From: Thermodesulfobacteriota bacterium
GTDB lineage: Bacteria > Desulfobacterota > SM23-61
Direction: 5' to 3'
Length of the DNA: 64,000 nt
Assembly: GCA_049699975.1 (NCBI GenBank)
Contig: JBNAWB010000001.1
Coordinates: forward strand, 24,534-88,533
Below the pieces are notes generated by a model. That model was not told the DNA's origin and did no database searches. It saw only the letters and a list, made by a program, of their open reading frames with translations. The translations under genes were made by a program, and so were the position numbers. Each line of letters starts with the position of its first letter. Position 1 is the first letter of the stretch. Shown here piece by piece: positions 1,362 to 34,310 of this stretch.

Positions 1362-1376
1362 GGCATATGAATTGCA
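1362..1376 (+). promoter_or_regulatory. Sigma-54 (-24/-12) promoter: aGGCATatgaaTTGCAt
   Basis: GG and GC elements are spaced exactly as in the TGGCAC-N5-TTGCA consensus. The site lies 35 nt upstream of ORF 1413. Confidence 0.6.
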
Positions 1377-1412
1377 TAGAAGATAATTGAATAAATTTTT
1401 GAGGAAGTGGCG

Positions 1413-1868
1413 ATGAAGATAAAAGGCCTTAGCGAAAATATAAATTCGCTATTAGCAGCAAAGAATAAAAAAAATATTTTGCCGGAGAAAACTAATTTTC
1501 AAGATGTGCTCCATAAAGCTTGCACGAATATTAAAGAGAATAAACCAGAAATCTCTTTTTTATGCCCAACATCAATTAACTTTCCTCAGCAAATAAATAC
1601 AAATAGGTTCATTATGAATTCCTGGGGAATAAAAACTATAGAAGATACTTTGGACCTCTTAGAAAATTATAAAGATCATCTTCTCAATCCTAACGTTTCC
1701 ACAGAAGAATTGAAAAAAGAATTAATTATTTTAAATAACAAAGCAGATGAAATGGGTCGCATCTTCCAGAGCGAAGGAGTTGACAAAGACCTCTTGAAAA
1801 TCGTAGAAGAAATTAAAATGCTTTCTAAGGCGGAAGTAGAAATAATTAATCGCGGAGATTATGATTGA
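1413..1868 (+). CDS. Hypothetical protein, first gene downstream of a sigma-54 promoter and upstream of the flagellar activator
   Basis: ORF with a GAGGAAG Shine-Dalgarno 7 nt upstream of ATG 1413. No recognisable family; C-terminus is acidic and predicted helical. Confidence 0.5.
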   Translation: MKIKGLSENINSLLAAKNKKNILPEKTNFQDVLHKACTNIKENKPEISFLCPTSINFPQQINTNRFIMNSWGIKTIEDTLDLLENYKDHLLNPNVSTEELKKELIILNNKADEMGRIFQSEGVDKDLLKIVEEIKMLSKAEVEIINRGDYD

Positions 1869-2230
1869 ATATATCCTCTGCCCTTTTTCTAAAACCCTCT
1901 TTTTTACCTCTTCTCTATCTTTTCTGAGAGCAAAAATTTTCAAAAAGTCAAAAATGTGACTCTCACTGAAAATATTTTTTTGACTATTTTGGGGAATTTT
2001 ACTTTTTGGACCGCACTTTAAATAGCCTAACTTTCGGTAATTAAATAATTCTTTATGAATGGCACAATAATTGCTGTCTAAATTAACCGACATTAACCGA
2101 CAGAAGTTTAGAAGATTTCAAAATTATCTTTAAGAAGCAATATTATCAACCATGATTGATAAATATGAAAGTCTTCTTTTAGATCCTTAATCCTGGATTA
2201 AATCAAATTTACTATTGGGGATAATTATCT

Positions 2231-3331
2231 ATGAATGGTCTGGAAACGGTTAATAAGGATGTAGAAGAAAGAAGTAGAGAAAAGAAGAGTTCTATCCCAA
2301 AATTATTTGCTGAAGCCTTACCAGAGGCCAATGGCCGCCAAATATTTAAAGAATTTTTAGCCGCCTTTTCCGGTTCTCCACCCCTTATTACTCAAAACAA
2401 GAAGATGCTGGAAATTCTTGCTTTATGTCAAAAAATTGCCTCCAGCAAAGCCACCGTTCTTCTGCAAGGCGAAAGCGGGACCGGAAAAGAACTTTTAGCT
2501 AAATATATCCATTCCTTAAGTCCGCGGAATAAAGGACCTTTTGTAGCGGTAAATTGTGCTTCTTTACCTGAGTCTTTATTAGAAAGTGAATTATTTGGCC
2601 ATGAGAAAGGTGCATTCACCGGAGCCATTGCCAAAAAAATAGGCAAGTTTGAGTTAGCTCATGGCGGAACCATCCTTTTGGATGAGATTAGTGAGATGAA
2701 TACTTTTCTCCAAGCCAAGATTTTAAGGGTGCTCCAAGAAAGCGAAGTGGACCGTATTGGTGGCCATCACCCTATTCCCATCGATATTCGAGTCATTGCC
2801 ACAACTAACCGGCATTTAGAGACCAGTGTGCAAAAAGGAGAATTTCGGGAAGATTTATATTATCGTTTGAATGTAGTTAATATAAAAATACCGCCCTTAA
2901 GAGAACGTCCCGAAGATGTTCCCCTCTTGGCCGATCATTATCTAAAATTTTACGCCCAAAATTATGGGCGGGCCGTGGAAAATATATCTCCCGCAGCCTT
3001 AGCTTGGCTCCAAAATCAGGAGTGGAAAGGTAATATAAGAGAACTTAAAAATAAAATAGAGTATGCGGTGCTGGTCACAAATAAGAACTTTTTAGATGTA
3101 GATGATTTTGCAGAAAAAGAAGGGACGCTGATTGAACCCAACCTCTTTCCCGCCCATGATTCTTTGTGCTTAAAAGATATGGAAAGGAGGTTAATTTTAA
3201 GAGCACTGGAGGCCACTAAAGGCAACCGCACGCAAGCTGCTAAAGTATTGGGGATCAGTATTAGAACATTAAGAAATAAGCTCAATGAATATAAAAAAGG
3301 TAATAGAGACTTAAAAATTTTTGAGGATTAA
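2231..3331 (+). CDS. Sigma-54-dependent transcriptional activator (bacterial enhancer-binding protein) lacking an N-terminal receiver/regulatory domain
   Basis: Walker A GESGTGKE, the GAFTGA sigma-54 contact motif and an R-finger region are present, followed by a C-terminal Fis-type HTH (TQAAKVLGISIRTLRNKL). Only about 55 aa precede the AAA+ core. Confidence 0.9.
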   Translation: MNGLETVNKDVEERSREKKSSIPKLFAEALPEANGRQIFKEFLAAFSGSPPLITQNKKMLEILALCQKIASSKATVLLQGESGTGKELLAKYIHSLSPRNKGPFVAVNCASLPESLLESELFGHEKGAFTGAIAKKIGKFELAHGGTILLDEISEMNTFLQAKILRVLQESEVDRIGGHHPIPIDIRVIATTNRHLETSVQKGEFREDLYYRLNVVNIKIPPLRERPEDVPLLADHYLKFYAQNYGRAVENISPAALAWLQNQEWKGNIRELKNKIEYAVLVTNKNFLDVDDFAEKEGTLIEPNLFPAHDSLCLKDMERRLILRALEATKGNRTQAAKVLGISIRTLRNKLNEYKKGNRDLKIFED

Positions 3332-3336
3332 TAAAA

Positions 3337-3753
3337 ATGAGCGAACTCTTAGGGAGAAAATTATTCGATAAAACCATTCTTTATCTCCAAAGGTCTTTGG
3401 GCTTGAGGACGTTAAACCAAAGAGTTATTAGCAATAATATTACTAACGCGCACACCCCTGGATACACTCCTAAAGAAATTCCTTTTCAAAGATTATTAGA
3501 TCAAGCTTTAGAAAAAGCTAATGGCCTTTTTATAGCTAAAACCAATGCCCAGCATTTGCCTAATTATCCTGAAGAGAGTTACCTGCTGGAGGCAATGGAA
3601 GAGAAACTTTCCTCGCTGCCTACTGATGAGGAAGTGCAGATAGAGAAAGAAATGGCTAAATTAGCTGCCAATAATCTCATGTTTCAAGCAGAAGTGCAAG
3701 CCCTTTTAAAGAAATTAGAAGCTTTGAAACTAACTATCTCAGAAGGGAGGTAA
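3337..3753 (+). CDS. flgB: Flagellar basal-body rod protein FlgB
   Basis: N-terminal rod motif (ISNNITNAHTPGYTPKE), appropriate size, and position immediately before flgC. Confidence 0.85.
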   Translation: MSELLGRKLFDKTILYLQRSLGLRTLNQRVISNNITNAHTPGYTPKEIPFQRLLDQALEKANGLFIAKTNAQHLPNYPEESYLLEAMEEKLSSLPTDEEVQIEKEMAKLAANNLMFQAEVQALLKKLEALKLTISEGR

Positions 3754-3760
3754 GCATTAT

Positions 3761-4267
3761 ATGAATTTATTAAGAGCCATGGCCATCAGTGCCAGCGGCC
3801 TGCAGGCCCAAAGATCGGTAATCAAAGCTACGGCTACCAACTTGGCGAATACCCAGACTATAAACCCGGAAAATGGGCTGCCCTACCCAAAAAAATCGGT
3901 CATCTTCTCTCCCCAAAATTATGGCCAGCCTTTTTTAGAAATTCTCCGAAGCAAATTGCCTTGGCCACAAAGCTTAGCTAGAACCCATATTGCCCATCTT
4001 CCCCCGTTAGAATTTTGGACTCCAGATTATGCGCCGCGACCTGAAGGTGTGACCGCGGAGATAATTACTGATCAGGAAGGATTCAAAAAAATATATGATC
4101 CTACTCACCCCCAGGCTGATGAACACGGATATGTTCTTTTGCCCGACATCAATTTGGTAGAAGAAATGGTCAAATTAATGATGGCCGTGCGGCAATACGA
4201 AGCGAATGTAACTTCATTTAACTCCATTAAAAATATGATCATGAAAGCTTTAGAAATTGGGAAGTAG
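3761..4267 (+). CDS. flgC: Flagellar basal-body rod protein FlgC
   Basis: N-terminal SASGLQAQRSVIKATATNLANTQT and C-terminal VEEMVKLMMAVRQYEANV rod-family motifs. Confidence 0.9.
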   Translation: MNLLRAMAISASGLQAQRSVIKATATNLANTQTINPENGLPYPKKSVIFSPQNYGQPFLEILRSKLPWPQSLARTHIAHLPPLEFWTPDYAPRPEGVTAEIITDQEGFKKIYDPTHPQADEHGYVLLPDINLVEEMVKLMMAVRQYEANVTSFNSIKNMIMKALEIGK

Positions 4268-4288
4268 AAAAAAATTCGAGGTGCGCAG

Positions 4289-4597
4289 ATGGATGATTTA
4301 AAAGTGCAAGGAGGTAGGCTTAAAAATTGGCCGGAATTACCAAATTTAAACAGCCCTTACCAAACCGATCAGAAATTTACTTTAGACTTTCAGGAATTTT
4401 TGCAAAAATCTCTGGCCGAAACAAATAGGGAAATGATCAAGAGCGATGAGCATATTAAAGAAATGATCGGGGGGCAAAAAGACGTACACGAGACTATGAT
4501 CGCCTTAGAGGAAGCAAACCTTTCCTTACGTTTACTGCTGCAAATAAGAAACAAGTTGCTTGCTGCTTATGAAGAGATTATGCGCCTGCAGTTCTGA
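4289..4597 (+). CDS. fliE: Flagellar hook-basal body complex protein FliE
   Basis: About 100 aa, with the conserved FliE C-terminus and a position between flgC and fliF. Confidence 0.8.
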   Translation: MDDLKVQGGRLKNWPELPNLNSPYQTDQKFTLDFQEFLQKSLAETNREMIKSDEHIKEMIGGQKDVHETMIALEEANLSLRLLLQIRNKLLAAYEEIMRLQF

Positions 4598-4609
4598 AAG
4601 GAGTAAGCT

Positions 4610-6247
4610 ATGGCGACATCTTTAATTGATCAAATGCAAAAACTCTTGAATTCTCCAACTAAAAATAGAAATTTAGCTGTCGCTTTAATCCTCATTTTAT
4701 CTTTGGTCAGTTTTGGTTCTTTAATTTATTGGAACAATACTCCTGACATGCAAATTTTGTTTACTAACCTTATGCCAGAAGATGCGGGAGAAATAGTGCA
4801 TAAATTAAAGGAGAAAAAGATTCCTTTTAAGATTGCCCATAATGGTACCGCCATCTTGGTTCCCCGAGATCAAGTCTACGATACTCGCCTGGCTTTAGCT
4901 TCGGAGGGCCTACCTAAAGGAGGAGGCATAGGATTTGAAGTTTTTGACCGCCAAAATTTAATTACCACAGATTTTATGCAAAAAATGAATTATCAAAGGG
5001 CGCTGCAGGGTGAGTTAAGTCGGACTATTAAACAAATTAAGGCGATAGAGCAAGTACGTGTCCATATTGTCACTCCTAAAGAATCGCTCTTTATCAGTGA
5101 ACAGAAAAAACCCACCGCGTCAGTATTTATTAAAACACGAGCAGGGGCCTCCTTAGAACCTGCCCAAGTAGAGGGGATTATCCATTTAATAGCCAGTTCA
5201 GTAGAAGGATTGGAACCGGGCAATGTAACTGTGGTCGATACTTCGGGAAAAATTTTATCCAAAAAAAGTCTCCCTAATTCTTTGGCTTCCTTAACAGCCA
5301 GCCAAATAGAATTTCAAAAGAATATTGAAGAAAGCTTAAAGAAAAAAGTGCAGACCATGCTGGAAAATGTTTTGGGAGCCCATAGAGTTATTGCCCAGGT
5401 TACCGCGGATATTGATTTCCAACAAGTGGATATATCGGAAGAAAAATTTGATCCCCAGGCTATAATCCGCAGTGAACAGAAGATAATCGAGCGCAATCTA
5501 ATGTCTTCAGGAGTGAAGAAAGGGGAGGAGGAGAAAGGTGTCCCACCGGATAAGGAAAAATCTTTAAACCCTCCCAAAGTTACGGGCGAGACAAGCGCCA
5601 ATAAAATGCTTAATAGCCCCTGGCCATTTAATGCTAATTCTTTAGAAAGGCAAAACGAAATTCGTAATTATGAGATCTCTAAGATAAATAAGCATATAAA
5701 AAATCCCGTGGGCACCCTAAAAAGACTCTCCGTAGCTGTAATGGTTGATGGCACTTATCAAGAAATGGTGGATAGCAAAGGTAAGAAAACCAAAAAGTAT
5801 TTACCTCGGCCCCCGGAAGAAATGAAAAGTTTGGAGAATATTGTTAAGAAAGCTGTGGGATTTAACCAAGAGAGAGGGGATCAATTAGAAATTATAAATA
5901 TGCCTTTTAATTTAGCCGCCAATGAAGAAGAAGAGATGAAAGCAGCTCCCCGGGAAAGTATCTGGAAGGAATATTTGCCCATCGCTTATAAACCGCTGAC
6001 CAGCTTAATTTTAGCAACCCTTTTTATCTTTTTCGTAGTTAGACCTCTTTTGAAGAGAATGTCGTTTTCCATGAAAGAAACTATGGCGCCGACAGAGCTT
6101 GCTCCTGTTCCAGCTATTGCACCAGAAACCGCCCCTGAACCGAAGCAATTGGACTTACGGACGCAAACTATAAAATTAGTAAAAGGAGATGCTGAACGGG
6201 CAGCAGGCGTAGTGAAGGCTTGGATCAACGAAAAAGGTGAGAGGTAG
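4610..6247 (+). CDS. fliF: Flagellar MS-ring protein FliF
   Basis: 545 aa with N- and C-terminal TM segments and the conserved YscJ/FliF core (EQVRVHIVTPKESLF, GLEPGNVTVVD). Confidence 0.9.
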   Translation: MATSLIDQMQKLLNSPTKNRNLAVALILILSLVSFGSLIYWNNTPDMQILFTNLMPEDAGEIVHKLKEKKIPFKIAHNGTAILVPRDQVYDTRLALASEGLPKGGGIGFEVFDRQNLITTDFMQKMNYQRALQGELSRTIKQIKAIEQVRVHIVTPKESLFISEQKKPTASVFIKTRAGASLEPAQVEGIIHLIASSVEGLEPGNVTVVDTSGKILSKKSLPNSLASLTASQIEFQKNIEESLKKKVQTMLENVLGAHRVIAQVTADIDFQQVDISEEKFDPQAIIRSEQKIIERNLMSSGVKKGEEEKGVPPDKEKSLNPPKVTGETSANKMLNSPWPFNANSLERQNEIRNYEISKINKHIKNPVGTLKRLSVAVMVDGTYQEMVDSKGKKTKKYLPRPPEEMKSLENIVKKAVGFNQERGDQLEIINMPFNLAANEEEEMKAAPRESIWKEYLPIAYKPLTSLILATLFIFFVVRPLLKRMSFSMKETMAPTELAPVPAIAPETAPEPKQLDLRTQTIKLVKGDAERAAGVVKAWINEKGER

Positions 6248-6251
6248 AAAC

Positions 6252-7271
6252 ATGGCCACCCAAACCATTACTGGACCGCAAAAAGCAGCCATCTTGTTGT
6301 ACAGCTTGGGAGAAGAGTTAGCCACAGAAATCGTGAAGAAGTTGGACGAGTCCGAAATAGAAAAGATTGGCCAATCCATGGCCAATATTTCCAGTATTTC
6401 TCCCGAGACAATAGAGACTATTTTAGGGGAGTTCCATCAATTAGCTGGTAAATCTTCTTTCCTGCCCCCGTTAAGCCCTGCGGGTAAAACTCTTTTTCTT
6501 AAGAATATTTTGACTAAAACTTTAAATGGCGAAAAAGCCCAAAGTCTCTTAGAAAAATTTAAAGAAGAGAAAAGATGGAATTTATTTAAAAAATTAAGCC
6601 AATTAGACTCCAGGGCTTTATTTAATTTCCTAAAAAATGAGCATCCGCAAATTATTGCGGTGATCTTGGTTCATCTGGATCCGCGGCAAGCCGCAGCAAC
6701 TTTAAGAGAATTTCCTAAGAATATGCAAGCAGAAATATTATACCGCATTTCCCAAACAGAAAACGTTTCCCAAAACATTTTGGAGGATATCGATCGTTCT
6801 TTGCAAAAAGAGATCATGCAGGTTGAGCATTTGGAAAGAGGGAAATTAGGTGGTATCCAATCGGTGGCCGAGATATTAAATCAAATGGATAGTGAGACGG
6901 AAGAAAATATCCTGCAGCAGATGGAAGAGTTTAAAAGCGGGATCGCGGAAGAAGTTAGAAAATTGATGTTTATCTTTGAAGATTTGGGAGAAATTGATGA
7001 CCGCAGTATGATGGCCATTTTAAAAGAGGTCAATAATGAGACGCTAAAATTGGCTCTTAAAACAGCCTCGGATAGATTGAAAGAAAAAATTTTCAAAAAT
7101 ATGTCGGAAAGAGCGGCCCAAATGTTGAAAGAGGATCTGGAAATAATGGGGCCAGCTCGCTTGAAAGATGTGGAAAATGCTCAACAGGAGATTATTAAGA
7201 TAGCTAAAAAGTTAGAGGCGGAAGGGAAAGTCATGTTGCTAAATAAAGGGAAGGAGGAAGTTTTTGTTTAA
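6252..7271 (+). CDS. fliG: Flagellar motor switch protein FliG
   Basis: FliG N-terminal, middle and C-terminal domains with the charged C-terminal helix region. ATG 6252 is preferred over the GTG at 6237. Confidence 0.9.
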   Translation: MATQTITGPQKAAILLYSLGEELATEIVKKLDESEIEKIGQSMANISSISPETIETILGEFHQLAGKSSFLPPLSPAGKTLFLKNILTKTLNGEKAQSLLEKFKEEKRWNLFKKLSQLDSRALFNFLKNEHPQIIAVILVHLDPRQAAATLREFPKNMQAEILYRISQTENVSQNILEDIDRSLQKEIMQVEHLERGKLGGIQSVAEILNQMDSETEENILQQMEEFKSGIAEEVRKLMFIFEDLGEIDDRSMMAILKEVNNETLKLALKTASDRLKEKIFKNMSERAAQMLKEDLEIMGPARLKDVENAQQEIIKIAKKLEAEGKVMLLNKGKEEVFV

Positions 7272-7983
7272 GAATTTGTCTTGGAGCAATACAAAAGATG
7301 AAGGAGAAAAGAAAGAAATTTCAGTAGATTACCGAAGGAGCCCTTTTGCGCCCAGCCCCATGGCTTGGCCCCGGATCAATCCCGGGATAAAAAATAACTT
7401 TCGCCCTGCTTATTGGGAAAAGTTGGAAAATGAGATAATCCAACAGGCTAAAGAGAAAGCCTTCTTTATAGAAAAAGAGGCTTATGAAAAAGGGTTTGTC
7501 CAAGGGGAAAAAAATGGTTGGGAGATGGCCCAAAAGAAATTAGCCGTTCTTTGGGATAATTTTCAAAAGCTCTTCCATGAATTGGAGAAGAAACTGGAAG
7601 AGCTTTATAGCCAAAATGAACGGGCATTGATCAAACTCGCTTTAGAGATAACTAAGAAAATATTACAACAAAACCACCTCCACTTAGAAGACACTATTGT
7701 AAAGACTTTATCAGCGGCCTGGCAATATGTAAAGGAAAATAAAAAAATTATAATCCATCTGCATCCCAAAGATTATGAATATCTAATGGCTAATTCCCCG
7801 CGATGGCCTTTTCCTTATGCCGAAAAAGAGTTGGGAAAAGTAGAATTGGTAGCCGATTCGACCATTTCCCGGGGGGGATGCTATTTGCAGACCGCTGTGG
7901 GAGATATTGATGCTACCTTAGAGACGCAATATGATCAACTTGTTTCTTTAATTTGGCAGAAAGTGAGCAAAGAAAGGGATTAG
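7264..7983 (+). CDS. fliH: Flagellar assembly protein FliH
   Basis: Lies between fliG and fliI, with a coiled-coil N-terminus and FliH/YscL-like C-terminus. The start (TTG 7264) is uncertain. Confidence 0.75.
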   Translation: MFKNLSWSNTKDEGEKKEISVDYRRSPFAPSPMAWPRINPGIKNNFRPAYWEKLENEIIQQAKEKAFFIEKEAYEKGFVQGEKNGWEMAQKKLAVLWDNFQKLFHELEKKLEELYSQNERALIKLALEITKKILQQNHLHLEDTIVKTLSAAWQYVKENKKIIIHLHPKDYEYLMANSPRWPFPYAEKELGKVELVADSTISRGGCYLQTAVGDIDATLETQYDQLVSLIWQKVSKERD

Positions 7984-7995
7984 GATAATAAGCGC

Positions 7996-9321: not shown

Positions 9322-9329
9322 ATGAAGAA

Positions 9330-11571: not shown

Positions 11572-11587
11572 CAAAAAGGAGGGGAAC

Positions 11588-23737: not shown

Positions 23738-23754
23738 GTTCTTAGGAGGGGAAA

Positions 23755-25913: not shown

Positions 25914-25927
25914 AAGGAGGGAAAATT

Positions 25928-26710: not shown

Positions 26711-26717
26711 GCTTAAA

Positions 26718-27464
26718 ATGGTTAGGTCTAAGATTTTAAAAATATATCTGATATTAATTCTTTATTCAGCAATCCTGATTTACTCTTTAGCTCACTCTGA
26801 AACAAAGGCCGACCTCCAAAACGGTTATATCATCGAAGCAGAAAGAGTGATGCGGATTTTAGAAGATTTTTTAAAGACTAACTTGGAAAAACAAAATCGC
26901 TCAGTCAAAATAAGCGAGATTCGCGGTTTTAAAAAAATTTTCCTACCCGAAGGAGTTCTATCCTGGGAAATAAAACTTCCTGATAGATTCTTCCAGGGGG
27001 GCGGTATTCCAGTTACTTTAACCTTCTATATAAATGGTCGCAAAGTTCAAGAGGTTCATTTTCAAGCTCAAGTTGAGATTTATGCCTGGGTAGTGGTGGC
27101 TAAAAATTATTTGCCCAAGCATCAGCTCATTAAAGAAAGCGATGTTCATCTTGTTTATCGGAATATTACCAAATATCCGGCCGATGTTCTTACGGAGACT
27201 AAAGAAGTTATAGGGAAAAGAGCGAGTCTCCATATAAATGCTTGGGAAGTTTTGCGCAAATCTATGGTGGAAGTGCCCCCCTTAGTGAAAAAAGGCGACT
27301 ATGTAACGCTCTTGGCCGAAAATGAGGGCTTTCGGATTACGGCTATAGGGGAAGTGAAGGAAGAAGGGCGTCAAGGTGAAATAGTGAAGGTTTTAAATAT
27401 TTCCAGCAAAAAAGAGATATTTGGCCGAGTTTTGGACAGTCAGACGGTGCAGGTAGATTTTTAG
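26718..27464 (+). CDS. flgA: Flagellar P-ring assembly chaperone FlgA
   Basis: Signal peptide, C-terminal SAF-like domain, and context between flgG and flgH. Confidence 0.7.
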   Translation: MVRSKILKIYLILILYSAILIYSLAHSETKADLQNGYIIEAERVMRILEDFLKTNLEKQNRSVKISEIRGFKKIFLPEGVLSWEIKLPDRFFQGGGIPVTLTFYINGRKVQEVHFQAQVEIYAWVVVAKNYLPKHQLIKESDVHLVYRNITKYPADVLTETKEVIGKRASLHINAWEVLRKSMVEVPPLVKKGDYVTLLAENEGFRITAIGEVKEEGRQGEIVKVLNISSKKEIFGRVLDSQTVQVDF

Positions 27465-27472
27465 GAGGGAAA

Positions 27473-28168
27473 ATGCCTAAATATATAGCCCAAAGATATT
27501 GCTTATTAATATTCTTCTTGATTTTGGGGGGCTTGGGGGGGTGTATGATGAAACCATCGCCCACCTGGAAATCTTCCCCTGCGCAATTAAAACCTATATC
27601 TCCTCTTCCTTCGCCACCGGCGCCCATAAGTGAAGGTTCTTTGTATTCTCCCCAGATGGGGGTAAATTGGTACACTGATCTAAAAGCCAGAAACGTCGGG
27701 GATATAGTAACCATAAACATTGTGGAATCAGCGAAAGCCTCCAAGAATGCTTCCACCAAGACTTCCCGCAATTCCGAATTTGGAGCGAGTTGGAGCGGCG
27801 TCCTATCTAAATTGAGTGGTAATTGGTTTGGTGATGAACATAAAGCTTCTTTTGATAATGAATTTGAAGGGAAAGGTGAGACTACCCGTAGTTCCCAATT
27901 AAACGCTTATATTACCGCCCAAGTAATCCAGGTCTTGCCCAATGGGAATTTAGTAATTCAAGGATCGCGCGAAGTGCGGGTTAATAACGAAAATCAATAT
28001 ATTAATATTCAAGGAATAGTTCGTCCGGAAGATATTTCGGCCAATAATATAGTCCTTTCTACCTTTATCGCCGAGGCCAAGATTGAACTTACGGGCCAAG
28101 GAGTTATTGCCGATAAGCAAAGGGCCGGGTGGTTTACCAGAATCTTAGATTGGATCTGGCCATTTTAA
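27473..28168 (+). CDS. flgH: Flagellar L-ring lipoprotein FlgH
   Basis: Lipobox LGGLGGC and a conserved FlgH core (NVGDIVTINIVESAKASK...). Confidence 0.9.
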   Translation: MPKYIAQRYCLLIFFLILGGLGGCMMKPSPTWKSSPAQLKPISPLPSPPAPISEGSLYSPQMGVNWYTDLKARNVGDIVTINIVESAKASKNASTKTSRNSEFGASWSGVLSKLSGNWFGDEHKASFDNEFEGKGETTRSSQLNAYITAQVIQVLPNGNLVIQGSREVRVNNENQYINIQGIVRPEDISANNIVLSTFIAEAKIELTGQGVIADKQRAGWFTRILDWIWPF

Positions 28169-28194
28169 ATAGTTATAAAAGAGGAAGAAGAGCA

Positions 28195-29382
28195 ATGAAA
28201 AAGGGCTTTTTCCAAATTTTATGTTTGTTCATGATTCTTGCAATTTTTTCCTCCCCTTCCTGGGGAGCGCGTTTGAAGGATATTGCTACTTTTAAAGGAA
28301 TTCGGAATAACCAATTAATCGGTTATGGGTTAGTAGTGGGCCTCAATGGCACGGGGGACAGTCCGAATGCCGAGTTTACCATCCGTTCGATCAGCAATAT
28401 GTTAGAAAGGATGGGCGTCCATATTCCCCAAGAGCGGCTCAGTCAAATCAGATTGAAAAATGTAGCCGCGGTAATAGTAACCGCATCTTTGCCTCCTTTT
28501 TCTAAAGTGGGAAATAAGATTGATGTGCATGTTTCTTCTCTGGCTGATGCTACTTCCTTAGCTGGGGGCACTCTTCTTTTAACCCCCCTCATTGGCCCTG
28601 ATAAACAGGTATATGCCTTAGCCCAAGGACCCATCGCCATAGGTGGCTTTGCTTTTTCTGGAGCTTCAGGCAGTGGTGTGCAGAAAAATCATCCCACAGT
28701 GGGTATCATTACCCGCGGGGCAGTGATTGAGAGAGAAGTACCCGTTTCTTTAAACGGGAAAAAGGAGCTTTTTCTTACGCTCTTCAATCCCGATTTTACT
28801 ACTGCCGAAAAAGTTAAAGAGGCGATCAATCATCTTTTAGGATTGAGCTATGCTTCTTGTGTTGATTCGGGAACTATTCAGATAGATGTACCTTATTCCT
28901 ATCAGCAACGAATTCCCCAATTGATCTCTTTATTGGAGCAGATTGAAGTAACTCCAGATACCGTAGCGAAAGTGATCATAAATGAAAGAACGGGCACCCT
29001 TGTTTTGGGAGAGAAAGTGCGCATTTCTACCGTGGCCGTGGCCCACGGAAATTTAAATATCCAAATAAAAGAGAAATTGCACGTCTCGCAACCCAATCCT
29101 TTTGCTCCCCCAGCTCCGCCGGGTACCCCAACTACGGTTGTTCCTCCTCGGGAAGGCACAGGTACTATTGTTACTCCGGGATCAGCTACAGTTGTTACGC
29201 CGGAATCAACCATAGGGGTGAAAGAAGAAAGAAAAGGATTAGTAGTTTTATCTGAAGGGGTAGATTTAGGAGAGTTAGTGAGAGCACTCAATGCATTAGG
29301 AGTAACTCCTCGGGATTTAATAACAATTTTGCAGAGTATTAAGGCCGCGGGAGCCTTGCAAGCAGAGCTGGAAATCCATTAG
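28195..29382 (+). CDS. flgI: Flagellar P-ring protein FlgI (with proline/threonine-rich tandem-repeat insertion near C-terminus)
   Basis: Signal peptide and FlgI core (RLKDIATFKGIRNNQLIGYGLVVGLNGTGD). An insertion of about 40 aa (PPAPPGTPTTVVPP...TIVTPGS ATVVTPES) lies within nt ~29095-29225. Confidence 0.9.
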   Translation: MKKGFFQILCLFMILAIFSSPSWGARLKDIATFKGIRNNQLIGYGLVVGLNGTGDSPNAEFTIRSISNMLERMGVHIPQERLSQIRLKNVAAVIVTASLPPFSKVGNKIDVHVSSLADATSLAGGTLLLTPLIGPDKQVYALAQGPIAIGGFAFSGASGSGVQKNHPTVGIITRGAVIEREVPVSLNGKKELFLTLFNPDFTTAEKVKEAINHLLGLSYASCVDSGTIQIDVPYSYQQRIPQLISLLEQIEVTPDTVAKVIINERTGTLVLGEKVRISTVAVAHGNLNIQIKEKLHVSQPNPFAPPAPPGTPTTVVPPREGTGTIVTPGSATVVTPESTIGVKEERKGLVVLSEGVDLGELVRALNALGVTPRDLITILQSIKAAGALQAELEIH

Positions 29383-29401
29383 AAATTTAAAGTTTAAGAA
29401 A

Positions 29402-29848
29402 ATGGAAAAAGGGCCGATACAAAATGTAAAAAATTTACCCAATCTCCTTTCCCCTATGGACAATTTTAATAAAGGGAAATTGGATGAAGAAAGAGCTAAA
29501 AAAGTTTGTCGAGAATTTGAATCCTTATTTTGGAAAGAAATCTTCAAATTGATGCGGAAAATGACCTGGGGAAAAGGATGGGGGAACAATAGCGAGTCAG
29601 GAAATGAAATATACCAAACCCTTTTAGAGCAAGAAGTGAGTAGAACCCTGGCTCAGAAAAAAGGATTAGGGATAGGAGAGCTAATTTATAAACAGATTAC
29701 CAATCAGCAAAAAAATAAAAGTAACCTTTCACTCTCCCCTCTTCCCAGCGGGGAGAGCCCCTTACCTTCTCCGCTCCTTAGTGGGGAGAGCCCCTCACCT
29801 TCTCCTCTCCCCATTGGGGAGAGGCAAGGTGAGGGGGAATTAAAATGA
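29402..29848 (+). CDS. flgJ: Flagellar rod-binding protein (FlgJ N-terminal domain only; no muramidase domain), with repeat-encoded C-terminal tail
   Basis: Rod-binding motif FESLFWKEIFKLMRK...GNEIYQTLLEQEVSRTLAQKKGLGIGELIY. The C-terminal 40 aa (SPLPSGESPLPSP... x3) are encoded by tandem hairpin repeats at 29732-29842. Confidence 0.75.
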   Translation: MEKGPIQNVKNLPNLLSPMDNFNKGKLDEERAKKVCREFESLFWKEIFKLMRKMTWGKGWGNNSESGNEIYQTLLEQEVSRTLAQKKGLGIGELIYKQITNQQKNKSNLSLSPLPSGESPLPSPLLSGESPSPSPLPIGERQGEGELK

Positions 29849-29897
29849 ACACTTGCTTGAGGCTTTGCCTAAAGAAATTAGGCGCGGAGAATAGGCA

Positions 29898-30386
29898 ATG
29901 GAAGAATCTACCGGGCAATTTAAGGATTTAGAAGAGTTAATGGTTGAAGAAATCCGTCAATATAACTTATTAATTGAAAAGATCAAAGAAGAAGGGCAAT
30001 ATTTGCGACAAAATTCTGTGGAACTTCTGCTTAAATCTATTAGCCAAATTGATAAACAAAGAGAAATTTTAGTGAAAATAAATGAAACCCTGAGGAAAGA
30101 ATTGAAAAGGGCAGCTAATTCATCTGAACTTAAAGAAGAAATTTTGGCTCACGCTCTGCCACTCCCAATTTACCATAAATGGCAGAGGCACCAAAAAGAA
30201 GTGGCCCACTTAAAGGAAAGAGTCCATAAATTAAATTTACAGAATAAGGCATTCATCCAAGAAATTCTTGCTTACTGGAGAGAATTAATGGATTTGATCG
30301 CTTCTTCCGGTAGTAACCTTTCATACCATTGGGTTAAGGGTAATAATCCAAAAACAAATCCATTCTTCTTAAATCAGCGAGTGTAA
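29898..30386 (+). CDS. flgN: Probable FlgN-family export chaperone for FlgK/FlgL
   Basis: About 160 aa, helical and charged, immediately upstream of flgK. Confidence 0.5.
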   Translation: MEESTGQFKDLEELMVEEIRQYNLLIEKIKEEGQYLRQNSVELLLKSISQIDKQREILVKINETLRKELKRAANSSELKEEILAHALPLPIYHKWQRHQKEVAHLKERVHKLNLQNKAFIQEILAYWRELMDLIASSGSNLSYHWVKGNNPKTNPFFLNQRV

Positions 30387-30388
30387 GA

Positions 30389-31840
30389 ATGTCTGGAGTT
30401 AGCGGAGTATTCAATATAGCTAAAGGTGCTTTGCAGGCTCAATTGGTCGCTATGCAAGTGGCCAGTCATAACTTAGCCAATGTAAATACCCCTGGGTATA
30501 CGCGCCAAATAGCCTTATTAGAAACCCAACCCTCAGCTTCCACAGGCCGGTTGAATTTAGGCCTGGGAGTGACCGTGCAATCTATAACCCAAGCAGTAGA
30601 TATTTATACTACGCAGACTATCCATAAAAACATTGCTGACCTTTCCGAGAGTGATACCAAAGCTTCTATATTGAATTATATTGAGAGTCTTTTTAATGAT
30701 ACTTCGGGCACGGGTCTTGCTCAGGCGTTGAGTGAGTTTTGGAATGCCTGGCATGACTTGGCTAATAATCCGAGCGGGATTGGCGAGCGCACTTCCCTTT
30801 TGGGAAAAGCCGAAAACCTTTGTAGCTTTTTCCATTCCTTAAGAAACAATTTAAGCCAAATTATGGAGCAAGCAAATGCCAGTATTGCTATCGCCCTCCA
30901 GGAAGTGAATGTGATCACCTCCCAAATTGCCAAATTAAATGGGAAAATTTTGGAAGCCGAATCTGCCGGAGCTGTGGCCAATGATTTACGTGACCAAAGG
31001 AATATTTTGTTAGAAAAATTATCAGACTACTTAGGCAATGTATATTTGGAAGATGAAAATGGGGGCTTGAAAATTTGGGTGGGTCAGGGCATAAGATTGG
31101 TTGACGGCCTTGAGTATTGGGAATTAGAAAGCAATGACGGAAAAATATTTTGGAATGATATTCCCGTAGATATTAGTAAAAGGTTGATCGGTGGCAAGAT
31201 CGGAGGTTGGTTAGATATTCGAGATGAAATAGTTCCTCAGTATATGGCCAACCTTGATGAATTAGCCGGCACGCTCATCGCCCAGGTGAATACGCTGCAT
31301 TTTACAGGCTACACCCTGGAGGGAGAAACAGGAAAATATTTTTTCAAAGATTTCCAAACTGCTCCGGAGTTGCCCAATTCCTCGGATTATACCAATGCGG
31401 CAGCTTATATACAATTGAGTACGGATGTCCTTGGTAATCCGCGGAATATCGCCGCCGGAGGAAGCACAGGTGATCCAGGAGATAATGAAAATGCTTTAAA
31501 AATATTAAATATCCAGAATGATGATACTAACTCCATTACCAAATGGGTTTATAACCAACGGGGAGATTCCCGCACGAGCATTTCCCTGAACGTTACTTTA
31601 GATCATTATTACCATAACCTCACCGGCGAAATAGGGCTTTTGACTGAGCAAATGCAACAAAAGCAGGAATTTATGCAGACATTTTTAGATCAATTAAGAA
31701 CAGTGCGTGATTCAGTCTCCGGGGTAAACGTAGATGAAGAATTGGTGGAAGTAATGAAAATTCAGCGGGGTTTTGAAGCGGCCTCAAAATTAATAGCAGT
31801 TGCCGATCAAATGTTGCAAAGTTTATTGGAGATCAGATAA
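30389..31840 (+). CDS. flgK: Flagellar hook-associated protein 1 FlgK
   Basis: Rod-family N- and C-termini (ALQAQLVAMQVASHNLANVNTPGYTRQ) and HAP1 size. Confidence 0.9.
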   Translation: MSGVSGVFNIAKGALQAQLVAMQVASHNLANVNTPGYTRQIALLETQPSASTGRLNLGLGVTVQSITQAVDIYTTQTIHKNIADLSESDTKASILNYIESLFNDTSGTGLAQALSEFWNAWHDLANNPSGIGERTSLLGKAENLCSFFHSLRNNLSQIMEQANASIAIALQEVNVITSQIAKLNGKILEAESAGAVANDLRDQRNILLEKLSDYLGNVYLEDENGGLKIWVGQGIRLVDGLEYWELESNDGKIFWNDIPVDISKRLIGGKIGGWLDIRDEIVPQYMANLDELAGTLIAQVNTLHFTGYTLEGETGKYFFKDFQTAPELPNSSDYTNAAAYIQLSTDVLGNPRNIAAGGSTGDPGDNENALKILNIQNDDTNSITKWVYNQRGDSRTSISLNVTLDHYYHNLTGEIGLLTEQMQQKQEFMQTFLDQLRTVRDSVSGVNVDEELVEVMKIQRGFEAASKLIAVADQMLQSLLEIR

Positions 31841-31843
31841 AAA

Positions 31844-32725
31844 ATGCGCGTAGCTACCAGGACTATATACTATAACTTGGAAAAGAAACTCCTTTCCTTG
31901 GAAGAAAAACAGCAAAAGATAAATGAACAGATAGCTTCAGGAAAGATCCTCAATAAACCATCAGATAATCCGCTGGCCATGATCAATGTTCTCCACTTGA
32001 AGAAGGCATGGGCGCAGGTGCAACAATACCAGCGGAATATGGAAACGACCAAAACTTGGCTAAATTTAACAGAATCGGCGCTGCAGCAGACGGAAGAATT
32101 GATCGGCCGGGCTAAAGAAATTGCTACCCAAATGGCTAGTGATACCCAAAATGCCGCGACTAGAGCTTTGGCGGCTAAAGAAATAGATCAACTTATAGAT
32201 CAGGCAATTTCTTTGGCTAATAGCGAGTTAGGGGGAAAATATATTTTTGCAGGTTATAAGGTTAATACTGTTCCTTTTTCCAAGGTGAGCGGATCCGTTC
32301 AATATAACGGCGATACTAATACAATTCAAATTCCCATTGGCCAAGAGGAAACTTTGGCAATCAATAAAGATGGGCAGACCGCCTTTATGGAGGCTGATAT
32401 TTTTACTGTATTAGGGAGTCTCAAAACTGCGCTGGAAAATAATCAGACAGCAGAAATTCGGCAGCAGTTAGAAAATCTCCAAGAGGTCGCGGATCATTTC
32501 AATAATCAAATAGTTGATATTGGGTCCCGACTGAACCGCTTGGAAGCCAAACAAAATATTCTTAAAGACCTGGATCTTTTCTTTCAAGAGAGAATCTCAG
32601 AAGAAGAGGATGCGGATATTTCCGCTTTAGTTGTGGATTTAAAGGCGAAAGAATTGGCTTATCAGGCGGCCCTGCTCTCTTCAGCAAAAATCCATGAGTT
32701 AACTTTATTAAATTATTTGCGTTAA
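31844..32725 (+). CDS. flgL: Flagellar hook-associated protein 3 FlgL
   Basis: Flagellin-like N-terminus with the typical FlgL motifs, and appropriate size. Confidence 0.85.
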   Translation: MRVATRTIYYNLEKKLLSLEEKQQKINEQIASGKILNKPSDNPLAMINVLHLKKAWAQVQQYQRNMETTKTWLNLTESALQQTEELIGRAKEIATQMASDTQNAATRALAAKEIDQLIDQAISLANSELGGKYIFAGYKVNTVPFSKVSGSVQYNGDTNTIQIPIGQEETLAINKDGQTAFMEADIFTVLGSLKTALENNQTAEIRQQLENLQEVADHFNNQIVDIGSRLNRLEAKQNILKDLDLFFQERISEEEDADISALVVDLKAKELAYQAALLSSAKIHELTLLNYLR

Positions 32726-32728
32726 ATT

Positions 32729-32853
32729 ATTAATGAGCGCATTAAATAAATGACATATGCTGTTCTTAACCCCTTATCCTAACCCTCTCGCCAGGCATGG
32801 GGAGAGGGGAAGGTAAGGGGAATAAGTGTAAATATTTAATCGCTCCGAGTAAT
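32729..32853. mobile_element. MITE-like repeat, copy 1 (imperfect 21-bp terminal inverted repeats tattaatgagcgcattaaata / tatttaatcgctccgagtaata; internal ctctcgcc...ggggagagggg hairpin)
   Basis: Near-identical to 62075-62221 over both arms. Located between flgL and csrA. Confidence 0.7.
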
Positions 32854-32888
32854 AAATAGAGCAGTCATTTTTGCCAGGGAGGGTGAAA

Positions 32889-33110
32889 ATGCTGATTTTA
32901 ACTAGGAAGATAGGCGAATGCATCGTCATCGGGGACAAGATCAAGGTCTATGTAATAGATGTCCGCGGTAAGCAAGTGCGCTTAGGTATTGAGGCCCCGG
33001 TTGAAAATGTTATTTATCGGGAGGAGATTTTCCAGAAGGTCATAGAGGAAAACAAATTAGCCGCCGAGGCAGTTCAATACCACTTCTCGAAGATTAAAGA
33101 AAAGGAGTAA
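32889..33110 (+). CDS. csrA: Carbon storage regulator CsrA
   Basis: MLILTRKIGE.I.IGD.I.V.V..V.G.QVRLGIEAP...I.REEI, with a GGGAGGG Shine-Dalgarno. Confidence 0.9.
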   Translation: MLILTRKIGECIVIGDKIKVYVIDVRGKQVRLGIEAPVENVIYREEIFQKVIEENKLAAEAVQYHFSKIKEKE

Positions 33111-33118
33111 GAGATAAA

Positions 33119-33553
33119 TTGAGAGTCACCACTTCTCGTTTTGGAACGATAGACATTGAGGAAAAACAGGTTATTCGCATGCCGGAAGGCATGATTGGTT
33201 TTCCTGATTTTCGAAACTATGTTCTCTTAGAGCATAAAAAAGAATCTCCTTTTTGGTGGTGGCAGTGTCTAGATGCACCTTCTTTGGCTTTTGTCCTTAC
33301 AGATCCTTTGCTCTTCAAACCAGATTATGAAGTACAAATAAGTCCGGAAGATGAAGAAATATTGCAGGTTAAAGAGGCGGCAGGAAACTTGAAAACTTTA
33401 GTCGTCGTTAATATATCGCGAGACACTCCACCCATCATTACTGCTAATCTCCTTGGCCCATTGGTAATCAATGTGGCTAAGAGACTCGCCCGCCAAATTA
33501 TTCAATTCCAGAATTCTTATTCCCACCGTTTTCCCCTTCCCTTAAGGTTATAA
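33119..33553 (+). CDS. fliW: Flagellar assembly factor FliW (CsrA antagonist)
   Basis: FliW family (FGTIDIEE..VIRMPEGMIGFPD...YVLL). TTG start. Confidence 0.85.
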   Translation: MRVTTSRFGTIDIEEKQVIRMPEGMIGFPDFRNYVLLEHKKESPFWWWQCLDAPSLAFVLTDPLLFKPDYEVQISPEDEEILQVKEAAGNLKTLVVVNISRDTPPIITANLLGPLVINVAKRLARQIIQFQNSYSHRFPLPLRL

Positions 33554-33582
33554 GGGAGGTCAGGCAAGTCCGCAGGGCGTGG

Positions 33583-33648
33583 CCATCTCTTTAATTTCAA
33601 TGAGTTACGAGATCGCCGCGGTCTGCATGCTCCCTCGCGATGACCTTA
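33583..33648 (+). repeat. GC-rich structured intergenic repeat, family 2, copy A
   Basis: About 85% identical to the reverse complement of 50180-50250. Contains the palindromic core gctccctcgcga. Confidence 0.6.
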
Positions 33649-33745
33649 CTACACAGTCTCAATGAAGAGAGGATTAGAGTGAGGGGATAAATTATAAGTA
33701 AGGTAATTTGGGCATGGGGTCGAGTTGTATCAAAGAAGATGAAAA

Positions 33746-34060
33746 TTATTTCAAAATCTCGGCTAAAAATTCTTTAGCCAACTTTTCTGATAATGCCTGG
33801 ACATCAACTTGATATTTTCCCTCCGCAATCAATTCTTTCAATTTCGCAATTTTTGCGGATCTTTGTTCAGGTATGCTTTGGAGAAAAGAATAAATTTGTT
33901 GCAGCTCTTTAGATGCCTGAGAAAGTTCCACTTTGTCGCTTGCTTCCCCAGGAGATTTCTTAGCATCTAAGGCTACTTTTCTTTGTTCCGCCGAAGTAAG
34001 TTTTTCGGATTGGGTTATTACTCCGGTCGCTTGATCGGGTTTTACATTCGTCACTGTCAT
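33746..34060 (-). CDS. flgM: Anti-sigma-28 factor FlgM
   Basis: About 104 aa with the conserved FlgM C-terminus (RSAKIAKLKELIAEGKYQVDVQALSEKLAKEF). Confidence 0.8.
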   Translation of the reverse strand: MTVTNVKPDQATGVITQSEKLTSAEQRKVALDAKKSPGEASDKVELSQASKELQQIYSFLQSIPEQRSAKIAKLKELIAEGKYQVDVQALSEKLAKEFLAEILK

Positions 34061-34113
34061 GAAGATTTTCTCCTTTATGAGAAAAAAATTTAAAATTTTA
34101 TTTTTCTAATTAT

Positions 34114-34140
34114 TTTTCGGCAAATTTAAAAGAAACTTTA
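34114..34140 (-). promoter_or_regulatory. Sigma-28 (FliA)-type promoter for flgM: TAAA-N15-GCCGAAAA (read on - strand)
   Basis: The reverse complement of 34114-34140 reads TAAAgtttcttttaaatttGCCGAAAA. Confidence 0.55.
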
Positions 34141-34294
34141 ATTTTTCTAATCACCCCCCGCTTAGATAAATAAAAAATAAATTAACTCGGCAAATTTTGC
34201 AACCCTTTTTTGTTTGGTCAGGCCTTTTTTGCCTATTTAATCTTTCTATCAATTTTAACTATTAGAAAAAATTAGGGTTTTTAAATTCATCTTC

Positions 34295-34310
34295 TGGCAT
34301 ATCCTTTGCT
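34295..34310 (+). promoter_or_regulatory. Sigma-54 promoter: TGGCATatcctTTGCT
   Basis: Correct -24/-12 spacing, about 40 nt upstream of the first gene of the glycosylation island. Confidence 0.6.

Follow-up and report, generated by a model that had tools for sequence, protein, structure and literature searches.

A receiver-less FlbD/FlrC-type activator and two classes of upstream site in a flagellar gene cluster of Thermodesulfobacteriota

Introduction

How can a bacterium order the expression of its flagellar genes when the activator encoded among them lacks a domain for receiving a signal? This question is raised by a 64,000-nt stretch of DNA from a Thermodesulfobacteriota bacterium, an uncultured relative of sulfate reducers (GenBank assembly GCA_049699975.1, contig JBNAWB010000001.1, positions 24,534 to 88,533), hereafter called the window. 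It carries a flagellar gene cluster and, within it, the gene for a sigma-54 enhancer-binding protein (EBP) that has no receiver (REC) domain. The prevailing view is that polar flagellates require a second-tier sigma-54 activator gated by a signal, such that the rod and hook genes are held until the membrane/supramembrane (MS) ring and the export gate have been built. In other bacteria, this checkpoint is FlgSR, FlrBC, FleSR or FliX-FlbD.

The first-pass annotation of the window, which was made from the sequence alone, read the EBP as the single, constitutive, FlhG-controlled master regulator of the cluster. In this report, we find no support for that reading; the EBP appears rather to occupy a second tier. 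We propose a four-tier cascade that runs from a FleQ/FlrA-like activator to an FlbD/FlrC-like activator and on to FliA, in which the middle regulator has no receiver. We give this reading a probability of about 0.6. The cascade type is already known; a receiver-less second-tier flagellar activator of the FlbD/FlrC type is new.

Results

The activator and the loss of its receiver

The EBP is a protein of 366 amino acids (aa). Pfam places a Sigma54_activat domain at residues 52-218 (PF00158, E = 8.5e-71), AAA_lid_14 at 224-295 and HTH_8 at 314-354, and detects no REC, GAF or FleQ domain in it; with only 51 residues N-terminal to the AAA+ core, the first-pass annotation described this architecture correctly. 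The motifs GESGTGKE (80-87), GAFTGA (127-132) and LLDE (149-152) are invariant in 12 orthologues. Walker A, Walker B, GAFTGA and the helix-turn-helix (HTH) are all intact. The protein thus has the features of a bacterial EBP, namely an AAA+ domain with Walker A/B and GAFTGA, and a Fis-type C-terminal HTH matched by enhancer-like dyads 69-153 nt 5' of four promoters. Two codons 5' of the ATG is an in-frame stop, and the 240 nt upstream contain four more, so that no start farther upstream, an eventuality that had been raised earlier, can add a domain.

The window EBP is identical to a protein in a metagenome-assembled genome (MAG) held at NCBI under the name “Thermodesulfobacteriota bacterium”. 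Eleven further proteins of 361-369 aa are 80-90% identical to it, and all 12 orthologues start with MNGL. The next homologues drop to 65-70% identity, and all of these are REC-AAA+-HTH proteins of about 454 aa. They are positional orthologues, being encoded directly 5' of flgB-flgC-fliE-fliF in other Thermodesulfobacteriota, and their aligned receivers have the acidic pocket, the phospho-acceptor Asp and the conserved Thr and Lys. Of 86 loci compared, the window and three related loci (L001-L003) are the only ones in which the AAA+ core is preceded by 51 residues; among the roughly 70 other homologues that are not cut short by a contig end, this segment never has fewer than 119. A scan of genome contigs found no receiver-less orthologue among the GTDB species representatives.

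Residues 1-51 align weakly to the alpha4-beta5-alpha5 portion of REC (34% over 71 residues; tblastn E = 0.002). In the 362-nt gap 5' of the EBP gene, tblastn found no relic of beta1-beta3; its sole match was the remnant within the gene. In the AlphaFold2 model, the predicted local distance difference test (pLDDT) score is about 90 in the AAA+ core and 84-91 in the HTH but falls to 25-39 in residues 1-51. We therefore regard the N-terminal segment as a degenerate REC remnant that is predicted to be unfolded. The ratio of nonsynonymous to synonymous substitution rates (dN/dS), computed between four members of the clade, ranges over 0.02-0.07 for the AAA+ core, where dS is 0.8 or more, and over 0.13-0.74 for the remnant. 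The low ratio in the core and the fast change at the N-terminus indicate that the truncated gene is old, maintained and functional, and that its N-terminus is a decaying leftover. The lack of a receiver thus characterises the whole clade, is maintained by selection and goes back to an ordinary response regulator.

Six sigma-54 promoters

The pattern GGCAT-N5-TTGCW (GGCATNNNNNTTGCW) has exactly five matches in the window, at 1362, 9925, 13747, 25155 and 34296, all on the + strand; 0.38 are expected, and none of 100 shuffles reaches five. Each match has the canonical GG-N10-GC spacing, is intergenic and lies 15-52 nt 5' of the first start codon of a flagellar block. The five promoters of the first-pass annotation are therefore real and canonical, but a sixth had been overlooked. 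A relaxed consensus scan found a better match, TGGCACAATAATTGCT (2060-2075), located 155 nt 5' of the EBP start codon and inside the 362-nt gap that separates a hypothetical gene from the EBP gene. In like manner, the gene content that had been listed for five blocks is sound, but the first block is really two units, one comprising P1 and the hypothetical gene and the other comprising P2, the EBP gene, flgBC and fliE..J.

To verify the gene content, we used Pfam and NCBIfam profiles and the genes called on orthologous contigs. Profiles matched fliK, fliL, flgF, FlhG (a ParA/MinD-type ATPase), FliA, FliM, FliN, FliP, FlhB, FlhA, FlhF, CheY, FlgN, FlgK, CsrA, FliW, flagellin, FliD, MotAB, CheA, multi-glycosyltransferases, and the nucleotidyltransferase and methyltransferase of a glycosylation island; flgB through flgE were identified via Pfam on the orthologous contigs. 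The flgB start lies 5 nt after the EBP stop, which indicates that flgB through fliJ are co-transcribed from P2. Relatives have a separate promoter for flgB that the receiver-less clade lacks, and a consensus scan shows no sigma-54-like site within 2075-7874. Other consensus-like matches (18094, 30706 etc.) are intragenic and are probably due to chance.

P1, P2 and P3 are kept at orthologous positions in L001-L003 and in the loci of the receiver-bearing clade. P1 is invariant in L001-L003; P2 is kept there and also precedes the orthologous activator gene of the receiver-bearing clade; P4 is kept in 14 of 15 fliM loci. From these comparisons, the cluster is predicted to be driven by six genuine sigma-54 promoters. 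A scan for the sigma-70 consensus around the EBP gene gave background level only. The promoters, their genes and two classes of upstream site are as follows; type A is a dyad, GTCA-N6-TGAC, followed by a TTGAC half-site, and type B is GG(C/A)A-W5-TGCC.

1205 to 1217, unstranded: type B site GGAAAAATTTGCC (GGCA-N5-TGCC class), 151 nt before P1
1361 to 1376, + strand: P1, sigma-54 promoter (AGGCATATGAATTGCA); pattern match, intergenic
1413 to 1868, + strand: conserved hypothetical protein, 151 aa; orthologues in all related loci
1947 to 1984, unstranded: type A site, dyad GTCAAAAATGTGAC (1947-1960) and TTGAC half-site (1980-1984), about 107 nt before P2
2060 to 2075, + strand: P2, sigma-54 promoter (TGGCACAATAATTGCT) of the EBP-flgB operon; relaxed scan and conservation
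2231 to 3331, + strand: receiver-less EBP, 366 aa, FlbD/FlrC type; Pfam, NCBIfam, alignments, AlphaFold2, dN/dS
3337 to 9776, + strand: flgB, flgC, fliE, fliF, fliG, fliH, fliI, fliJ; open reading frame (ORF) list and Pfam on orthologous contigs
9809 to 9821, unstranded: type B site GGAAATTATTGCC, 110 nt before P3
9924 to 9939, + strand: P3, sigma-54 promoter of fliK-flgD-flgE (9955-13542)
13621 to 13653, unstranded: type A site, dyad GTCAAAGTATTGAC (13621-13634) and TTGAC half-site (13649-13653), about 119 nt before P4
13746 to 13761, + strand: P4, sigma-54 promoter of fliL-fliM-fliN-fliO-fliP-fliQ-fliR-flhB-flhA-flhF-flhG-fliA-cheY (13814-24141)
24996 to 25008, unstranded: type B site GGCAAAAAATTCC, 153 nt before P5
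25154 to 25169, + strand: P5, sigma-54 promoter of flgF-flgG-flgA-flgH-flgI-flgJ(N)-flgN-flgK-flgL (25203-32725)
34189 to 34201 and 34221 to 34233, unstranded: two type B sites, GGCAAATTTTGCA and GGCCTTTTTTGCC, 101 and 69 nt before P6
34295 to 34310, + strand: P6, sigma-54 promoter of the glycosylation island (34352-42609)

A 10-nt tandem duplication (ATTAACCGAC twice, 2083-2102) lies directly 3' of the P2 -12 element, in the initially transcribed region; L001-L003 lack it.

Two classes of upstream site

Intergenic alignments with L001-L003 revealed that sequence blocks other than the promoters are conserved as well. Each promoter in the window has sites of one type: type B at P1, P3, P5 and P6, and type A at P2 and P4. 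The first-pass annotation had treated the promoters as one uniform regulon. That view does not hold, because four promoters have GGCA-N5-TGCC, two have GTCA-N6-TGAC, and each class is separately conserved in distant relatives.

The type A dyad was the top de novo dyad in an unbiased count over the promoter-upstream regions of the receiver-bearing clade. It precedes the promoter of the activator gene in 11 of 12 related loci (L001-L004, L006-L008, L010-L013), and the twelfth, L005, has one mismatch. Further, a type A dyad and a sigma-54 promoter stand before fliL in all ten related loci with enough upstream DNA (nine distinct contigs), across which FliM identity falls from 92% to 34%.

Type B sites precede the promoter of the hypothetical gene in L001-L005, L008 and L010-L013, as GGCAAAATTTGCC and similar sequences. 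At the fliK promoter, GGAAAT-W-TTGCC occurs at -106 to -118 in L001-L003 and in the nine receiver-clade loci L005-L013, and at -255 in L004. With at most one mismatch, GGCA-N5-TGCC has 26 sites in the 64 kb; five of these are in the six 236-nt promoter-upstream windows, where 0.58 are expected (P = 3e-4), and they fall at exactly four promoters. A candidate clade-specific motif, TTGCCTA, was rejected, as it is one half of the GGCA-N5-TGCC dyad that is kept in both clades.

Two GGCA-N5-TGCC-like sites with one mismatch each (at 13918 and 13944; span 13918-13956) are located inside fliL, about 170-200 nt 3' of P4. Downstream sites are used by FlbD and FlrC. The sites inside fliL could be repressive, activating or the product of chance.

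A second activator

We refer to the activator encoded directly 5' of flgB (the window EBP and its orthologues) as EBP2, and to a second, receiver-bearing activator as EBP1. In the receiver-bearing clade, EBP1 is a REC-AAA+-HTH protein of 461 aa encoded just 5' of EBP2; it is 45% identical to the window EBP and has a different HTH. In L005-L008 and L010-L013, a type A dyad and promoter follow directly 3' of the EBP1 gene, before the EBP2 promoter.

A search with EBP1 as query uncovered a subgroup of 462 aa on AT-rich contigs (L087, L088), which are outside the window but in the same species-level MAG. The order there (L087, 8001-11303; L088, 122-3445) is EBP1, type A dyad, TTGAC half-site, sigma-54 promoter, an flhG-like gene and a fliA-like gene. 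The products of the latter pair are 56-58% identical to FlhG and FliA of the window; the organism thus has two flhG-fliA modules. One such EBP1 (P0181, 462 aa) is in GCA_049969335.1, the same assembly that holds an identical copy of the window EBP. Accession series link EBP1 and the receiver-less EBP in three MAGs (MGB9697767/MGB9698122, MGC8809063/MGC8811639 and MGQ9695382/MGQ9695943); the co-occurrence is direct in one assembly and by accession series in two more. The window EBP is the only EBP in the 64 kb, as had been stated, but it is therefore not the only one in the organism.

The EBP1 gene has a conserved consensus sigma-70 promoter, TTGACA-N17-TAAAAT. Against solved structures, EBP1 scores 303-348 bits for FleQ/FlrA and 250 for FlrC, whereas the window EBP scores 262 bits for FlrC (4QHS) and 229-233 for FleQ/FlrA. 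In all 120 members of the EBP1 family (P0121-P0240), GAFTNA (once GSFTNA) replaces GAFTGA; we found no mention of this variant of EBPs in the literature searched.

No cognate kinase adjoins EBP1 or EBP2 in any locus examined. In some genomes of the receiver-bearing clade, a 612-aa tetratricopeptide repeat (TPR) protein, not a kinase, is encoded between EBP1 and EBP2 (L010, 7745-9583). The window encodes a stand-alone receiver protein of 229 aa (47416-48105), with an uncharacterised C-terminal half, after fliS. We considered it as the detached receiver of the window EBP and rejected it, since it is only 33% identical to the REC domains of the orthologues, a generic level. Directly after cheA is a soluble, sensor-less histidine kinase (52718-53533; 271 aa, HisKA and HATPase_c), the only HisKA kinase in the window. 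The stand-alone receiver protein or this kinase could be a partner of EBP1.

Assignment of the sites and a cascade model

Among 18,950 NCBIfam models, the best match of the window EBP is FlbD (NF050807), at 413.5 bits against an equivalog cut-off of 750. The match spans profile positions 115-440 of 454, that is, all but the receiver part. The HTH of the window EBP, GNRTQAAKVLGISIRTLRNKLNEYK, is nearly identical in Desulfovibrio homologues and in alphaproteobacterial FlbD-like proteins; those Desulfovibrio homologues have atypical receivers without a phosphorylation pocket (FIAEPQ..., FTRPQ). DVU1063, the flagellar FlbD homologue of D. vulgaris with an atypical receiver, binds GGCAxxxxTGCC as judged by DNA-affinity-purification chip (DAP-chip), and Rajeev et al. 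pointed out the match of this site to the FlbD site, CCCGGCAxxxxxTGCCGGG (PMC3333781). Because type B sites correspond to this published FlbD/DVU1063 site and the HTH in the window is of the FlbD type, we assign type B to the receiver-less EBP. The predicted sites have the ftr-type GGCA-N5-TGCC core at sigma-54 late flagellar promoters that is expected of the FlbD family. The type A dyad, for its part, has the form of the proposed FleQ box of P. aeruginosa, GTCaNTAAAtTGAC (PMC6120874). From adjacency, exclusion and its resemblances to FleQ, EBP1 would serve the type A sites.

In the cascade that we propose, tier 0 would be a sigma-70 promoter that drives EBP1, a FleQ/FlrA-like protein with a canonical receiver that is encoded outside the window. 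In tier 1, EBP1 would activate sigma-54 promoters with GTCA-N6-TGAC about 110-125 nt upstream: P2, for the receiver-less EBP, flgBC and fliE..J; P4, for fliL..flhBA-flhFG-fliA-cheY; and, elsewhere in the genome, a third type A promoter that drives the flhG-like/fliA-like pair. In tier 2, the receiver-less EBP would bind GGCA-N5-TGCC dyads 70-155 nt upstream of four sigma-54 promoters and activate them, namely P1 (the 151-aa gene), P3 (fliK-flgDE), P5 (flgF..flgL) and P6 (the flagellin glycosylation island). Tier 3 would consist of FliA (sigma-28) promoters of flagellin, flgM and che genes. The model fits the “polar flagellar transcriptional program” of Vibrio, Pseudomonas, Campylobacter and Caulobacter (PMC7064773).

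With only a 51-residue REC remnant, the tier-2 activator would not be switchable by phosphorylation. Its activity would most likely be set by the amount made from P2, to which feedback or a protein partner may add. The first-pass annotation suggested that the EBP gene is autoregulated. Its own promoter, P2, belongs to the class that does not match the predicted specificity of the EBP, and a cascade thus fits better than simple autoregulation. Some positive feedback could nonetheless arise from read-through, given the type B site at P1 and the lack of a predicted terminator between P1 and P2.

Weighing the model

The suggestion that the EBP is independent of phosphorylation and possibly constitutive remains plausible, and the truncated protein would, on this view of its sequence, be active without a signal. 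FlbD needs no phosphorylation for its activity, which is under the control of FliX (PMC3096577), and DVU1063 probably needs none either (PMC3333781). In the negatively regulated NtrC1 and DctD, removal of the receiver gives constitutively assembled, active oligomers (PMC10696123). All of these precedents favour a constitutive EBP.

Several points weigh against our model. In FleR, which is positively regulated, REC aids assembly and stabilises the active heptamer (PMC10696123), so loss of REC need not give constitutive activity; the direct ancestors of the receiver-less EBP had a canonical receiver, for which a negative or a positive mode is conceivable. The proposed assignment of sites to proteins rests on HTH similarity, adjacency and exclusion. 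Each type B site in the window is one mismatch from the perfect dyad, these sites were partly found by eye before the statistical test, and the comparison with relatives covered those at P1 and P3. The two dyads are related in form (GTCAA-N4-TTGAC and GGCAA-N3-TTGCC), and cross-recognition between them may be possible. EBP1 is encoded on a different contig, and its link to the window depends on MAG binning, in which three MAGs agree. The competence of EBP1 to activate sigma-54 with a GAFTNA loop is assumed. Finally, rpoN is not within the 64-kb window; the indirect signs of it are six conserved -24/-12 promoters and two EBPs that are under purifying selection.

The alternative that survives best retains the cascade but has a trans-acting protein gate the truncated EBP through its AAA+ core or HTH. 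We consider this possible, if clearly less probable than the bare cascade. Such gating has precedents in FliX-FlbD, PspA-PspF and HrpV-HrpS. FliX, not phosphorylation, controls FlbD (PMC3096577, PMC7064773), and the domain-less EBPs PspF and HrpS are controlled by inhibitors (PMC10084136). The candidates are the 151-aa protein and FlhG, and their role as trans-acting inhibitors of the window EBP is speculative. The gene of the former most likely starts at ATG 1413, as its orthologues begin with MKIK; these have 150-165 aa, are present in all related loci and adjoin EBP genes in both clades, and in the window the gene is provided with a type B site and a sigma-54 promoter of its own. Yet the protein has no Pfam or NCBIfam match and no detectable similarity to FliX or any other family, and a homologue search returned only nine close relatives. 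Its AlphaFold2 model is helical (mean pLDDT 62) and gives no informative fold match: Foldseek against the Protein Data Bank found nothing below E = 0.1, the best hits (E = 0.27) being generic helical bundles. Moreover, the gene is equally present where the EBP keeps a canonical receiver, and the protein is therefore not a specific replacement for the receiver.

The first-pass reading, in which the receiver-less EBP is the constitutive master of all sigma-54 flagellar promoters, positively autoregulated and checked by FlhG/FleN, is unlikely. This EBP is alone in the 64 kb, its gene is 3' of two sigma-54 promoters with no predicted terminator between them, flhG is in the P4 operon, and FleN inhibits FleQ by protein-protein contact (PMC10084136; the antagonism of FleQ by FlhG is also described in PMC10723142). 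However, there are two separately conserved classes of upstream site, EBP1, which bears a receiver and has a sigma-70 promoter to itself, occurs in the same MAGs, its gene is accompanied by the GTCA site in both clades, and the window EBP resembles FlbD/FlrC and not FleQ/FlrA. Nothing points to FlhG as the controller of the window EBP; the FleN-FleQ precedent better fits EBP1, with its own flhG-like neighbour.

Still less probable is an exchange of roles, in which the receiver-less EBP binds GTCA, autoregulates and serves the early genes while EBP1 binds GGCA and makes the rod and hook genes subject to a checkpoint through phosphorylation. This arrangement would keep a two-component checkpoint before those genes, as in Vibrio, Pseudomonas and Campylobacter (PMC7064773), and the similar form of the two dyads would permit it. 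But the HTH in the window matches homologues of FlbD/DVU1063, whose GGCA-type sites are experimental, and that of EBP1 differs; further, EBP1 resembles FleQ and FlrA, and the proposed FleQ box (PMC6120874) is similar to the GTCA dyad. It is very improbable that the truncated gene is decaying, or an artefact of assembly, and encodes no working activator: the EBP is shorter than every other homologue and its 51 N-terminal residues evolve fast, but 12 independent sequences from different samples share its start and length, the AAA+ core is constrained at saturated dS, GAFTGA, Walker A/B and HTH are intact, and GGCA sites that fit its HTH are kept before P1 and P3 in the receiver-less clade.

Discussion

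Relation to known systems

The window EBP is most akin to FlbD of Caulobacter crescentus and DVU1063 of Desulfovibrio vulgaris. FlbD is its best NCBIfam family, the HTH recognition regions are almost identical, and the predicted target core, GGCA-N5-TGCC 5' of sigma-54 rod, hook and late promoters, is the same (PMC3333781). By analogy with these proteins, whose activity does not depend on receiver phosphorylation (PMC3096577), the window EBP may act without it; like FlbD, it would act after the MS-ring and export-apparatus genes. The likeness has limits. FlbD and DVU1063 keep a full-length, atypical receiver fold, whereas the window EBP lacks beta1-beta3 and what remains is predicted to be unfolded; also, its FlbD score of 413.5 bits is below the equivalog cut-off. 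FliX was not found: the 151-aa protein has no Pfam FliX match, and none was seen elsewhere in the window. As the immediate relatives have a canonical, apparently phosphorylatable receiver, the loss of the receiver would be independent of its degeneration in FlbD and DVU1063.

FlrC of Vibrio cholerae, FleR of Pseudomonas aeruginosa and FlgR of Campylobacter and Helicobacter are likewise second-tier sigma-54 activators of rod, hook and hook-associated-protein genes. They too belong to a polar-type hierarchy containing FlhF/FlhG, with the gene in an operon dependent on the first-tier activator, and the AAA+ domain of FlrC is the closest to the window EBP among solved flagellar regulators (4QHS, 262 bits). 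These proteins are response regulators, with a phospho-acceptor Asp and cognate kinases (FlrB, FleS, FlgS) that sense assembly of the MS ring and export apparatus (PMC7064773); the window EBP, by contrast, has neither receiver nor adjacent kinase, and FleR differs further in needing REC to stabilise its active oligomer (PMC10696123).

In having an AAA+ core and no N-terminal regulatory domain, the window EBP resembles PspF, HrpR/HrpS and Rhodobacter FleT. PspF is constitutively active unless inhibited in trans (PMC10084136). It is not related to the window EBP by descent, scoring 192 bits against 262-277 for FlrC and ZraR, and the window shows no evident inhibitor of the PspA or HrpV kind. FleT differs in that it also lacks an HTH and works as a hetero-oligomer with FleQ.

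The window EBP is not a FleQ/FlrA protein: it has no FleQ domain, its gene has sigma-54 promoters only, and FlrC scores higher. It is EBP1 that resembles FleQ of Pseudomonas and FlrA of Vibrio, in its closest solved structures (303-348 bits), its sigma-70 promoter and its presumed targets (the EBP2 operon, the flhA-flhFG-fliA operon and the adjacent flhG-like gene). EBP1 differs from FleQ in having a canonical phosphorylatable REC instead of the degenerate FleQ type, and in the GAFTNA of its sigma-54 contact loop.

Implications

Three linked changes mark the clade: the tier-2 receiver has been lost, the separate flgB promoter is gone, and EBP1 has left the cluster. A tentative interpretation, which we hold to be somewhat improbable, is that the checkpoint on assembly, which in polar flagellates normally separates the MS-ring/export-apparatus genes from the rod/hook genes, has been given up in the clade as a whole. 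The tier-2 receiver would have been lost, the EBP gene fused transcriptionally to flgB-fliJ and the tier-1 gene moved beside the second flhG-fliA pair, with timing left to a bare transcriptional relay or to gating by the 151-aa protein, as a partner of a new kind, via the AAA+ core.

Nothing in this finding upsets the accepted logic of flagellar hierarchies. FlbD of Caulobacter and DVU1063 of Desulfovibrio have already shown that phosphorylation can be dispensable; here the receiver itself has been deleted from a protein under strong selection. The clade thus offers a natural experiment on what the receiver does in FlbD/FlrC-type activators, be it repression, assembly or the docking of a partner, and on whether a bare transcriptional relay suffices to order flagellar assembly. 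Further, GTCA-N6-TGAC for early genes and GGCA-N5-TGCC for late genes are testable regulon predictions for a large, mostly uncultured group.

Other features of the locus

The remaining features that bear on flagellar regulation are as follows.

32889 to 33110: csrA, and 33119 to 33553: fliW, 3' of flgL in the P5 block
33746 to 34060, - strand: flgM, between fliW and P6; TIGR03824 match above cut-off
34114 to 34140, - strand: sigma-28-like promoter TAAAGTTT-N11-GCCGAAAA for flgM
42614 to 42640, + strand: sigma-28-like promoter TTAAGTTT-N11-GACGATAA for flagellin (42732-43568)

Sigma-28-like promoters also precede cheA and cheW. A G+C-rich inverted repeat (ccctctc...gagaggg) lies between flgL and csrA (32726-32888), and a G+C-rich stretch of 190 nt between fliW and flgM (33554-33745); an Rfam scan of the window returned no match to these or any other part of it. 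The csrA-fliW pair may have its own promoter, or a terminator may stand 5' of csrA.

The glycosylation island encodes a nucleotidyltransferase, a methyltransferase, a 1727-aa multi-glycosyltransferase and a protein that combines a family 2 glycosyltransferase (GT2) with TPR. The 1727-aa ORF (35681-40864), between P6 and the flagellin gene, contains a polysaccharide deacetylase, four GT2 domains, one GT1 domain and TPR repeats; its product presumably performs flagellin glycosylation.

Directly 5' of P1 is a gene for a second FliL-domain protein (576-1199; 207 aa, with a long N-terminal extension), the start of which is overlapped by a near-perfect FleQ-box-like sequence, GTCCATAAATTGAC (567-580). 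Farther along the window, a chemoreceptor is seemingly split into two overlapping ORFs (54258-55884) that match positions 6-111 and 125-171 of the MCPsignal profile, the result of a frameshift, a pseudogene or an assembly error. An isolated sCache fragment (55966-56427) follows it.

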